A stretch of DNA of 64,000 nt from an uncultured Thermoleophilia bacterium. Its GTDB lineage: Bacteria; Actinomycetota; Thermoleophilia; UBA2241. Made by a program: the position numbers and the translations under genes. Below the pieces are notes generated by a model. That model was given only the letters and a program-made list of their open reading frames with translations. It did no database searches and had not been told where the DNA came from. Positions 2,387 through 5,585 of the stretch are shown here, in pieces. Numbering within the stretch: position 1 is the stretch's first letter; every line of letters begins with the position of its first letter. The stretch is taken from the NCBI GenBank assembly GCA_963696935.1, contig CAVOMB010000060.1, positions 1,704 through 65,703 on the forward strand, read 5' to 3'.

Positions 2387-2509
2387 GGGGCCTCCTTGGC
2401 CGGGCGTGCGGGTGCCGTGCGAGCGTATCGCAGGGAGACGCCTCCGCGGAACCGGCGGTGATGGGAGGCGACAGGCAGACCCGGCGGGCGGCCCGGACGC
2501 GCCGGCGGC

Positions 2510-3250
2510 CTACGCCCGCTGCGGCCGCGGCAGCCCGAAGAGCCGGTGCGCCGGCACCGGCGCGGGCGGCCGGCGGAGCCAGCGCCGGCGGGGCGGCCGC
2601 TGCGCGGGCAGCAGCCCGTCGGCGGCCAGGCGGCCGGCGCCAAGCAGCCTCGCGAGCGCGCTCCACAGCACGATGAGCGCGAGGCCGCCGAAGAGCAGCG
2701 CCTTGCGCAGGGCCGGCGCCGGCGTCCAGTACATGGCCACCTGGTCGGCCCACTCCTGACGCAGGTTGACGACCTGCGGCAGGTGGAAGAACCACTCGCC
2801 GTTCTGGCGTCCCGCAATCTGCACCCCGGGGTTCTCGAGCGCGTTGGCCGTCTTGCCCGGGTAGTCCACCCAGATGTGGTCGAGCGACATGTACAGGTGG
2901 TTGGGAATGCCCTTGGCGGTGAGGATGCTTGCGAGCACCACGGCGCGGCTCTCACAGTCGCCGGCGCCCGTCTTGAGCGCCTCGGCGGTGGTCGGAAAGT
3001 ACCAGGGCACGCCCGCCGACCGCCAGTCGTAGGCGTAGGGCACCTGCTTGTCGAGCACGTAGGCCTCGATGGCCTTGGGGTCGTTGGGGAGCCTCGCCGC
3101 GATGGCCGCGACCGCCTGCGGCTGGATCCGCGGCCGCATGGTGTTGCGCACGCTGCGCACGAGCGCCGTGGGGTCCGGATAGAGCATCACGAGGACCCAG
3201 GCGGCGAAGAGGAAGATGAGGGCACGGCGGGGCAACATCACTGACTGCAT
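2510..3250 (-). CDS. Membrane-anchored transglutaminase-like protein
   Basis: GDCESRA catalytic Cys motif, DHIWVDY, N- and C-terminal hydrophobic segments. Confidence 0.65.
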
Positions 3251-3289
3251 GATACCCGGGGCGGCGCGCGCGGCAGCGCGGTTCGCCGG

Positions 3290-4610
3290 CCCGGATGAAG
3301 CATGTGTGAAGAAGTGAGAAGGAAGCTCGGCGTCAGGCGTGGGACGAGCCGTCAGAGAGACGGGTGTTGCACTACGGACTTGAACTCAGGCAATCGCGTC
3401 AACGCCCGAGGACGATGTCGATGCCGAGCTTCCATCCGCGCTCCACCCTGGGGGCGGGCGCAGCGATGGCCTGTGCGGCAGCGGGGAGGCCGAGTCTTGT
3501 TGACGAGGGTCGCTGGGCGCCCTCAGCGCATCTGAGGCGGCTCTCCTTCGCTAGGCCGCTGCCCTGTACACCTCCCCACGGTCGAGGAGGGTCCAGGACA
3601 GTCCGAGCGGCTCGCGCGCGGCCGCCACCAGGGCGACCTTCTTGCCGCGGCGGTGGGCACGTGCGAGGTAGCGGTCGCGTAGCGGCCCAAGCAGGCGCAC
3701 GGCGACGTGCGCCGCCTCGACCAGGGCGCGGCGTGCGTGCGGCGAGCCGGCGCGCGTGATGCGCCCGTAGTGGGCGACGTCGGCCGAGGCGCGCACGCAG
3801 GGCACGAGCCCGAAGTAGGCGGAGACCTGGGCCGCGCGCGCGAAGCGGTGCGGGTCGCCGAGCTCGGCGACGAGCGTCGCGGAGGTGAGGAAGCCGACCC
3901 CGGGGATGGTCTGCAGCAGAGCCACCTCAGGGGCGCCGCGGAGGCGCTCGCGCAGCAGCGCCGTGAGCTCCGCCACGTGGGCGTCGGCCTCGTCGATGGT
4001 GGCGAACAGCAGCTCGACGAGCGTGCACGTGTGGGCGTCGAGCTCGAAGCTCGGCGAGCCAGACGCGGCCGCCTCTGCCGAAGAGGTCCGTGCCCGCGAA
4101 GCGCAGGCAGTGGCGCGTGAGCAGGTTGCTGATGCGGTTCTTGGCGGTGGTGCGCTGGGCGACGAAGCGCCAGCGGAGGCGCACGAGGCTCGCGCAGCTC
4201 GCGCACCTCGGCCGGCGGCGCCCAGGCCTCGGGCACGAGGTCGCAGCGCAGCAGATGGGCGAGGATGCGCGCGTCGATCTTGTCGGTCTTCACGCGCGCC
4301 GAGGCGATCGCCTTCACGTGCGAGGGGTGCGCCAGCTTGACGGAGGCGGCGCAGCTGCGCAAGGCGTCGTAGGTGCGGTGCCAGCTGCCGGTCGCCTCGA
4401 GGACCACGGCGCAGTCGCCCGGGACGATGCTCGCGACCTCTTCGGTCGGCAGGCTGCCCTCGCGGAGGATCTCTCCGACCGGGTCCATCAGGCAGTACTG
4501 GGTGCGCACCTTGTGCACGTCGAGTCCCAGGTAGTACGTTGGCATCGGCGCTCTCCTTCCCTGTCGGCGGTGGCTACGACGACAGTACGGGGAGCGTCCT
4601 GTTCATGCCA
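3290..4610 (-). mobile_element. IS110/IS1111-family insertion sequence (ends approximate)
   Basis: Frameshifted transposase flanked by a ~60 bp 5' and a ~260 bp 3' non-coding region; no terminal IRs or target duplication seen. Confidence 0.8.
3551..4545 (-). pseudogene. IS110 transposase, split over several frames
   Basis: RuvC-like YLGLDVHK / VLEATG / KTDKID in ORF 3523-4545; C-terminal LQTIPGVG..SAYFGLVP..S..GRITRAG in ORF 3551-3976; middle part in ORF 3927-4184. Confidence 0.9.
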
Positions 4611-4621
4611 TCTTGTTAGTC
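4601..4621 (-). other. Probable left half of an attC site (R'' plus L''-like box), interrupted at the IS110 end
   Basis: GACTAAC overlaps the parE TAA stop and is near-complementary to the cassette's 5' core GTTGGTC; followed by GCATGAAC. No matching right half found. Confidence 0.45.
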
Positions 4622-4924
4622 ACGCCCAACGTCGTCCGGCTCTGCGGGGAGCTGAGCCGAGTGCCAGGCCGCGACCACCCAGACCGCGTCCTCCTTGACG
4701 CGGTAGAAGAAGCGGTAGGGCGGAACGATGACCTCGCGGAACGCAAGGTCAGGGAACTCGGGTAGCACGCGCCCCGACTCCGGGTACTCGCCGAGGCGCG
4801 AGAGCGAGGCGGCAGCTCGGTCGCGCAAGTTGCGCGCTGCGACTGGGTCGTCAGCCGCAACGTAGGCGAGCGCCGCGAGGAACTGTTCGCGGGCGGCGGG
4901 CGTGAAGAGGACCCTGCGGCTCAA
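4616..4924 (-). CDS. RelE/ParE family toxin
   Basis: TTG start overlapping the antitoxin stop; VLFTPAAREQ..YVAADDPVAA..YPESGR..FREVIVPPYRFFYRV. Confidence 0.85.
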   Translation of the reverse strand: MSRRVLFTPAAREQFLAALAYVAADDPVAARNLRDRAAASLSRLGEYPESGRVLPEFPDLAFREVIVPPYRFFYRVKEDAVWVVAAWHSAQLPAEPDDVGRD

Positions 4925-5197
4925 GGCCTGCCGAGCAGGTGGTCGGCCTCGGCGAGTACCTCCGCGAGCGCGTGGCCGGAACCGGCCTCGATCTCGGCCT
5001 CGCCGCGGGCGAGCAGGCGCAGGATCTCGAAGCTCGTGCTGCGTGCGCTCGTAGGCCCGTGCGCTGACCACGACTGCCGCTGCGCGGCCGCGCTGGGTGA
5101 TGAACACCGGCTGCTGCGTGTCGGCGGCGCGCTTGATCACGCCAGAGGCGTCCTGACGCAGGTCGGTGATGGGGACGATGTCGGGTACTGATGCCAT
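4921..5197 (-). pseudogene. Phd/YefM antitoxin with a +1 frameshift near 5030 (possibly sequencing error)
   Basis: IVPITDLRQDASGVIKRAADTQQPVFITQRGRAAAVVVS; removing one T restores ..HELEILRLLARGEAEIEAG..ADHLLGRP*. Confidence 0.85.
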
Positions 5198-5212
5198 TGA
5201 AGCTACCTCCTA

Positions 5213-5232
5213 TGATACCGACAACGGTATCA
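5213..5232. promoter_or_regulatory. Palindromic operator upstream of phd-parE
   Basis: TGATACCG-acaa-CGGTATCA, perfect 8-bp inverted repeat just upstream of the RBS; typical of toxin-antitoxin autoregulation. Confidence 0.6.
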
Positions 5233-5266
5233 CTAACGTACTCTCGCGACCAGAGGAGAGGGCTGT

Positions 5267-5353
5267 GACCAACGCCCGGCGCATAAGCTGTGCGCCGCGC
5301 CGTCCCGGTCAATCTGGGCGCTCCGGCGCATCAGGTTGATGCACTTGTTGGGT
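5267..5353 (-). other. Integron attC site (hicBA cassette), 87 bp
   Basis: R'' ACCCAAC, L'' CATCAACCTGATGCGCC, L' GGCGCACAGCTTATG, R' GTTGGTC; arms pair with unpaired C and A (G and T on the bottom strand). Confidence 0.8.
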
Positions 5354-5360
5354 GGCGCGA

Positions 5361-5585
5361 TCACCGCGCCTCAAGAAGTTCGTCGATGGTCAGGTGGATG
5401 TCTGCGGCGATCTTGCGCAGCAGCGCGGGCGAGATGTCGCGACCGGCGTGGAAGGGCACCGTCGTCGTGCGGCCGTCGGGATGGCGGAACTGCTTGTGCG
5501 AGCCGCGCTGGCGGACTTCCGCGAAGCCGAGGGCCTCGAGTAGGGTGACGACCTGCCGCGGCTTGAGGACCGGCAGGCTGCCCAT
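5361..5585 (-). CDS. hicA: HicA family toxin
   Basis: LEALGFAEVRQRGSHKQFRHPDGRTTTVPFH (GSH motif). Confidence 0.92.
   Translation of the reverse strand: MGSLPVLKPRQVVTLLEALGFAEVRQRGSHKQFRHPDGRTTTVPFHAGRDISPALLRKIAADIHLTIDELLEAR

Follow-up and report, generated by a model that had tools for sequence, protein, structure and literature searches.

Probable remnant of a seekRNA/bridge-RNA gene in a truncated IS1111-type element at an attC site of an uncultured Thermoleophilia bacterium

An insertion sequence (IS) of the IS1111 type very probably left the 5' half of its guide-RNA gene in the DNA described here, a window of 64,000 nucleotides from an uncultured Thermoleophilia bacterium. The surviving half occupies positions 3423–3550 of the minus strand, and the copy, which lies in an attC, appears to be both truncated and frameshifted. 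The window element is a broken member of the seekRNA/bridge RNA mechanism published in 2024, attC targeting included. Since that mechanism, with attC targeting, was already published in 2024, the general interest of the locus is modest.

Composition of the non-coding interval

Between the transposase stop codon (3551–3553) and the start of the next gene (3250) lies a gap of 297 nt without a convincing ORF; a 77-aa ORF at 3302–3535 matches no Pfam family. The minus strand of the interval folds with an MFE of −139.6 (z −3.3), and 1 of 100 shuffles folds equally well. The initial annotation took this interval for a structured non-coding unit of about 260 nt located 3' of an IS110 transposase. The ORF-poor gap is real and folds better than shuffled sequence, but homology to related elements is restricted to 3423–3550, and therefore 3255–3550 is not one structured unit. 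Judged by these homologs, it is a mosaic, and the share derived from the IS is only the 128 nt of 3423–3550 on the minus strand.

The inverted repeats named in the initial annotation do exist, for example 3318–3334 with 3420–3436 (15/17 positions matching). As an RNA stem, the GCCGAGCTTCC-type repeat does not hold: it joins IS sequence to unrelated DNA and is absent from every homolog. Inverted pairs of such quality are common in this 70% G+C DNA, with 85 of them within 1.7 kb. A further proposed stem, CCTCAG/CTGAGG, competes with a hairpin that covaries in relatives (GAGGG/CCCTC). The pyrimidine-rich tract is present on the minus strand at about 3300–3340. An Rfam search over 2500–5500 (E ≤ 10) returned chance matches only, ARAGORN reported no tRNA and no tmRNA (one motif is T-loop-like in look), no promoter- or terminator-like site was found in the interval, and no second copy of any part of 3255–3440 was found elsewhere in the metagenome-assembled genome (MAG).

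The part adjoining the next gene (3251–3288, minus strand) is the conserved leader, or upstream region, of that gene, which occupies 2510–3250 on the minus strand and has a weak transglutaminase-like match. The leader is 76–86% identical in four relatives, and all of them diverge past 3288. Its conservation upstream of the same gene would fit an interval that is, as a whole, a 5' leader or regulatory RNA of the gene at 2510–3250. Such a role is highly improbable, as conservation ends at 3288 with each relative different beyond, the Rfam, promoter and terminator searches gave no match, and the rest of the interval is explained by mobile-element sequence. Positions 3289–3344 (minus strand) are pyrimidine-rich DNA, in part similar to the sequence that follows a 45-nt repeated motif (described below) at the loci L098 and L099. 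In genomes of the same genus, the left chromosomal flank is conserved as far as 3288 and the phd-parE flank from 4612–4614 on, the two being located on separate contigs there. An annotation of the interval should list its parts separately, as a pseudogenised IS that retains half of a guide-RNA gene, the remnant of mazF, the repeat and the leader of the next gene, and should avoid the label of a functional non-coding RNA.

Transposase and element ends

The transposase pseudogene, of the IS110 family (DEDD), lies at 3551–4545 on the minus strand and carries its two Pfam domains in different frames. Read in a single frame, it is a 340-aa ORF with the N-terminal DEDD domain alone (DEDD_Tnp_IS110, PF01548). 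Transposase_20 (PF02371, E 2.6e-25) lies in another frame that ends at TAG 3551–3553, which is the true transposase stop once two frameshifts are read through. In the closest relative, L004, both domains lie in one ORF, an intact gene of 331 aa (L004:2003–2998) with 85% nucleotide identity to the window copy. Compared with L004, the window copy has +1 insertions near 4189 and 4048, neither in a long homopolymer, and an in-frame 3-nt deletion near 4416. The transposase is at most 41% identical to anything among 72,556 plasmid records.

The relatives used for comparison are six genomic and eight metagenomic elements with a transposase 72–100% identical to that of L004, plus L092, a right end without a detected transposase match. 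Intact relatives total about 1.3 kb, made up of a 66-nt left end, the 331-aa DEDD transposase and a right end of 217–244 nt. They read in the order left flank ..CTAAC (or CTAGC, CTGAC), AAG, ATGG and a 12-nt repeat, CATGAAAAGGAC, and the right end closes with the complementary repeat, G and AAG. The bases outside the repeats are ATGG on the left, G on the right and one shared AAG, which can be divided as 7+1 or 5+3; they sum to 8, not to the 10 of the IS1111 group (7 bp on the left + 3 bp on the right), and in this they also depart from the attC-targeting IS1111 elements compared below.

In the window, the left end (4546–4611, minus strand, 66 nt, aligned to five homologs) consists of ATGG, the 12-nt sub-terminal inverted repeat CATGAACAGGAC (4596–4607) and then the RBS. 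The window keeps this left copy of the repeat alone, whereas the relatives have the repeat and its complement. Its 12 nt fall within the 7–17 bp of sub-terminal inverted repeats in the IS1111 group. IS1111 elements are recognised by a 5' end that is short compared with a long 3' end, and by repeats in a sub-terminal position (Siddiquee et al. 2024, PMC11187229; Durrant et al. 2024, PMC11208160). On these features, with a 3' end that is non-coding, a place for the window element in the IS1111 group of the IS110 superfamily is supported.

Further decayed copies of the IS occur at L064 (G193:C3) and L094, where the transposase has several frame breaks and the right ends are complete. At L090:5179–5376, a partial match to the first 67 transposase residues (81% identity) lies 1.6 kb downstream of a complete copy on the same metagenome contig.

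The attC target site

The phd-parE cassette ends in an attC inverse core of the R'' type, the box GACTAAC (4615–4621, minus strand); the empty sites of relatives and the IS flanks identify it as the left target of the IS. The parE stop codon, TAA at 4616–4618, lies within this box. Next to it is the core, AAG (4612–4614, minus strand), of which an empty site has a single copy and an intact IS insertion has one at each junction. In eight relatives the orthologous parE cassette has no IS and reads GACTAAC-AAG-CG(C/G)ATC.., closing with ..GCGGTGCGTTRGRC (a GTTRGRC end). By their inverse core, imperfect inverted arms and core site, these uninterrupted sites are attC. The same target recurs among the related IS copies: nCTAAC, nCTAGC or nCTGAC stands at the left flank in all 12 copies whose left flank is present, and an attC 3' half ending GTTRGRC, recognised by eye, follows the IS in at least 10 of 15 copies.

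The IS sits directly 3' of the attC inverse core, that is, near the 5' end of attC. An IS1111-attC group with insertion near the 5' end of attC was reportedly described by Tetu and Holmes in 2008. With respect to orientation, tnp is on the same strand as parE (sense), and all copies read from inverse core through the IS to the core site. The flanking target had been placed at 4611–4625 and at about 3285–3300. At the first of these the match is found, as the GACTAAC box and the AAG core, whereas the second is not an IS boundary and has no guide match.

The phd and parE genes of the window (4616–5197, minus strand) read as one ORF of 193 aa with both Pfam domains. The phd antitoxin gene appears to be frameshifted, through either decay or an assembly indel.

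Conserved structure of the guide RNA

The segment 3423–3550 (minus strand), the proximal half of the IS 3' non-coding end, is identified as the remnant of a seekRNA/bridge-RNA gene by a covariance model and by homologs. It is 71–90% identical to the first half of the non-coding end (217–244 nt) of 15 homologs. Covariance model R1, which covers the first 150 positions, matches 3400–3549 with 115.4 bits (E 2.1e-26), with similarity gone after about model position 121; on intact genomic copies the same model scores 138–155 bits. A covariance model built from homologous elements had been suggested as a check. These elements do yield one with covarying structure and a match of 115 bits, but it covers part of the interval only.

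The first module spans about 67 nt (3483–3549) and consists of an outer stem P1 (GGGGAG-A-GCCG with CGGC-CUCCCC), an internal loop and a hairpin P2, as predicted by RNAalifold and by most single-sequence folds. For RNAalifold the alignment was trimmed to a common start; the untrimmed version misses P1 owing to a 1-nt indel. The 3' strand of P1 (3485–3492, minus strand) would pair with 3538–3546, and two P1 pairs covary in relatives; in the window copy, the two lowest P1 pairs are mismatched in the model alignment. Hairpin P2 (GAGGG...CCCUC, 3505–3524, minus strand) lies between the two loop strands. Two of its pairs show GC/AU changes that are compensatory, one pair in 4 and the other in 5 of the 14 distinct sequences.

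Pairs were counted on a MAFFT alignment that is not fitted to the structure. In this alignment 93.3% of cells are paired, compared with 38–47% with slid partners, and 17 cells are changed on both sides, compared with 6.5 ± 1.9 in shuffles (0/500 that high). Double changes occur at five pairs in all, namely GC/AU at two P1 and two P2 pairs and CG/GC at one pair of hairpin P4 in the second module. The covariation backs a conserved RNA, and with 14 distinct related sequences, few events and an effective sequence number of 1.26 it is supportive rather than overwhelming. The 3' end of the IS very likely encodes a conserved, covarying RNA, the transcript and its ends being predicted. The proposal of a guide RNA downstream of the transposase in the IS1111 manner agrees with the short 5' end, the long 3' non-coding end and the covarying RNA in relatives.

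Guide strands and their match to the target

The two strands of the internal loop of the first module appear to read opposite strands of the target on the two sides of the attC core and to overlap at the crossover. To the right of the core, the top strand of attC has its complement in the 5' loop strand, CCUCAGAUGCGCU (3525–3537, minus strand). The reverse complement of CCUCAGAUGCGCU agrees at 11/13 positions with the empty site of the ortholog L038 (AAG-CGCATCGAG). In the relatives, the reverse complement of the 5' loop strand gives the top strand of attC, starting with the final two bases of the core; this is AG-CGCATC in group A and AG-CGCGTGCA in group B. Private variants of the guide fit their own right flank, at 11/11 positions in L060, 9/9 in L062 and 11/11 in L088. 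When the seven distinct guide classes were paired with flanks in all 5040 combinations, only 6 combinations reached the score of the cognate assignment. Several copies of group A match their own right flank at just 7–8 of 11 positions.

The 3' strand, GUCAACAAGACU (3493–3504, minus strand), corresponds to the left target AAC, the core AAG and the first base of the IS left end, and it is an invariant block in the homologs. Across them it reads TAAC, AAG and the first left-end base, with a T/C difference as the sole variation.

The idea that the loops encode an attC-like target is therefore upheld for the two loop strands within 3423–3550, which match attC and of which the 5' strand varies with the target in relatives; it does not extend to 3285–3300, where a guide match is absent. 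Among the intact relatives, changes in the guide strand go along with changes in the attC arm, which makes them a natural series, if a small one. Bridge RNAs have been defined with evidence of this sort, and here it concerns integron sites in Actinomycetota, in which integrons are little studied.

The second (putative donor) module

The second module (3428–3471, minus strand) comprises GGCCAUCGC (3463–3471), hairpin P4 (3438–3461) and AUGGAAGC (3428–3435); the two blocks are invariant in the homologs, and P4 has one covarying pair. Its geometry mirrors that of the first module. The block GGCCAUCGC, with its GCCAUC, is complementary to GATGGC of the IS left end, while AUGGAAGC equals the IS right end ATGG, the AAG core and the first target base. 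From the junctions of the relatives, we infer that these are donor matches. The matches to both IS ends are 6–8 nt long, the blocks never vary, and alternative pairings exist. For example, CCAUC is pairable with a nearby GAUGG or with a distal CGRUGG, and helix 3 is 84.5% paired with no double changes. Three outer stems are candidates: CCAUCG with distal CGRUGG and CCAU with proximal AUGG, neither of which shows double changes, and GCCG/UGGC, seen by eye only.

Truncation, mazF remnant and the 45-nt repeat

Similarity to the relatives stops after ..GGAUGGAAGCUCGGC, and hairpin P5 and all distal sequence are missing. Right after the break follow 40–44 nt that are 92.5–100% identical, at six loci of five relatives, to the last nine codons, the stop codon and 10 trailing bases of a gene. 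In the best case, 41/41 positions past the breakpoint are identical to the mazF 3' end. The matching gene encodes 113 aa (PemK_toxin, E 2.8e-26). By this homology to the gene 3' end in relatives, 3399–3429 (minus strand) is the end of a toxin gene of the MazF/PemK type, namely its last nine codons and its stop, and a 7-nt microhomology (3423–3429) joins it to the IS.

In a genome of the same genus (L048:2417–3560, G001:C8), a mazE/mazF cassette comes after the parE cassette, and both have an attC of their own. It is likely that this order is the ancestral one of the array end seen in the window. In G001, 716 bp separate the two points that the window joins through the IS.

Two readings of the interval as an intact structure have to be weighed against a truncation. 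In the first, the whole of 3255–3550 is one complete, working bridge/seek RNA gene with attC-like targets encoded in its distal loops. The distance of 262 nt from the stop codon to the synteny break at 3288 is near the 217–244 nt of the right ends of intact relatives, and the z of −3.3 points the same way. Yet similarity to the 15 homologs ends at 3423–3429, the next 40 nt are identical to the mazF end in relatives, and the sub-terminal repeat, the ..CATGG terminus and a guide match at 3285–3300 are all absent, so that a complete gene is hardly credible.

The second reading, that the element is intact in the organism and that the frameshifts and the IS/mazF junction are metagenome assembly artefacts (indels, a collapsed or a chimeric join), is unlikely, if somewhat less so. 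In its favour, the MAG is 82.6% complete and divided into 115 contigs, phd-parE too reads as a fused ORF, at least four frame breaks occur in copy L064 of a related MAG, and frameshifts could be errors of long-read assembly. The insertions, however, lie outside long homopolymers; the junction is mid-contig and flanked by coherent remnants (mazF tail, 10-nt trailer, repeat), and a chimeric join is not expected to land on a 7-nt microhomology.

A truncated remnant is therefore the preferred reading. As the right terminus and its repeat are gone and no other copy of the element was found in the MAG, the element is immobile even if the frameshifts should prove not to be real. With two +1 frameshifts and a deleted right terminus, the window copy lacks the features of an active IS, and this copy, as read from its sequence, is a decayed remnant and not a working guide-RNA gene.

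Beyond the mazF remnant, 3345–3389 (minus strand) is a 45-nt motif that is repeated across the genus. Its 24-nt core, GAGTTCAAGTnCGnAGTGCAACAC (3364–3387), occurs 21 times among 54 genomes of the genus, in 17 of them and at 1–3 copies each, and a reversed-pattern control gave none. In the window the motif starts after the 10-nt mazF trailer, where the attC inverse core of the mazF cassette would be. Its other copies (L098–L118) have different flanks on both sides, and their neighbours are the end of an IS30-type transposase, the end of a tyrosine-recombinase-like gene or an attC 3' half. An IS30-family inverted repeat was considered as an identity for the motif; it fits three loci and fails at others.

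Proposed history and mechanism

The locus is best explained by the following history. The IS, in sense orientation, would have entered the attC behind the phd-parE cassette at the AAG core, directly 3' of the inverse core (..CTAAC). In intact relatives, transcription presumably takes in the right end, either together with the transposase or after it, and the RNA would fold into the first module of P1, internal loop and P2. The 5' loop strand would pair with the attC top strand right of the core, and the 3' loop strand with the bottom strand left of the core and with the core itself, while the second module would hold short matches to both IS ends. By analogy with experiments on IS1111 and IS621, the RNA could in this way unite the circularised IS junction and attC for recombination at AAG. 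In the window copy, a later deletion of about 0.8 kb probably occurred between GCUUGGC of the IS right end and GCUCGGC of mazF, the 7-nt microhomology. It would have removed some 110 nt from the far side of the right end, including the sub-terminal repeat and the terminus, along with the remainder of attC, mazE and most of mazF.

Relationship to known guide-RNA elements

In IS1111 elements, the seekRNA is located 3' of tnp, with the match to the top strand 5' of the match to the bottom strand, which is the reverse of the IS110 order (PMC11187229). For 93% of IS1111 elements, the right end is predicted to contain a bridge RNA (PMC11208160). ISKpn4, ISPst6 and, by prediction, ISPa25 target attC (PMC11187229). 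The element described here shares with these three a DEDD transposase, a long non-coding end 3' of tnp, a sub-terminal inverted repeat (12 nt here), a common core with no true target duplication, a target at the 5' (inverse-core) end of attC, and a segment complementary to the top strand that lies 5' of the one complementary to the bottom strand. It differs from them in its hosts, which are an uncultured Thermoleophilia actinobacterium and soil/sediment metagenomes, not Proteobacteria, and in that the window copy is truncated and frameshifted. ISPa21 and ISPst6 are described as antisense to cassettes (PMC3001079, a secondary source), whereas the insertion here is sense to cassettes. The identity of at most 41% to plasmid records and the sense orientation leave membership of the named IS1111-attC clade unsupported.

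The lineage, found in Thermoleophilia MAGs and in contigs from soil, sediment and sludge metagenomes, might have gained attC targeting independently of the proteobacterial IS1111-attC clade, with sense insertion and a guide retuned in each copy to different attC arms; we put this forward tentatively, with slightly more doubt than confidence. If true, it would be a natural record of guide reprogramming inside actinobacterial integrons.

The bridge RNA of IS621, an IS110 element (PMC11208160; Hiraizumi et al. 2024, PMC11208158), has the same modules of stem, internal loop and hairpin, with loop strands that read opposite DNA strands around the core; it also has a second module that matches the element's own ends, the role predicted for the second module here. 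In the present RNA, the 3' loop strands extend beyond the core by one base of partner DNA, a feature that resembles the handshake guides. In contrast to IS621, the RNA here is in the right end and not the left, the order of the strand matches is reversed, and the apparent core is 3 nt (AAG) rather than CT. ISEc11 and ISPa11, members of the IS1111 family in which the seekRNA has been shown by experiment, are organised in the same way, with a target-reading RNA of 82–96 nt just after the stop codon, where the first module here spans about 67 nt; their targets are different, namely a linear site and REP elements.

Two minor observations concern the right end. An orphan, full-length but mutated IS right end (L123:1501–1740, G072:C7; 62.9 bits) has no transposase upstream, and its terminal repeat has the same AACAGG variant as the left-end repeat of the window. 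In the right ends of L004, L059–L062 and L088–L097, an invariant CTTG directly adjoins the inner side of the right sub-terminal repeat, some 25 nt away from the terminus. This CTTG could be the −35 box of a promoter built at the circle junction, as described for ISEc11.
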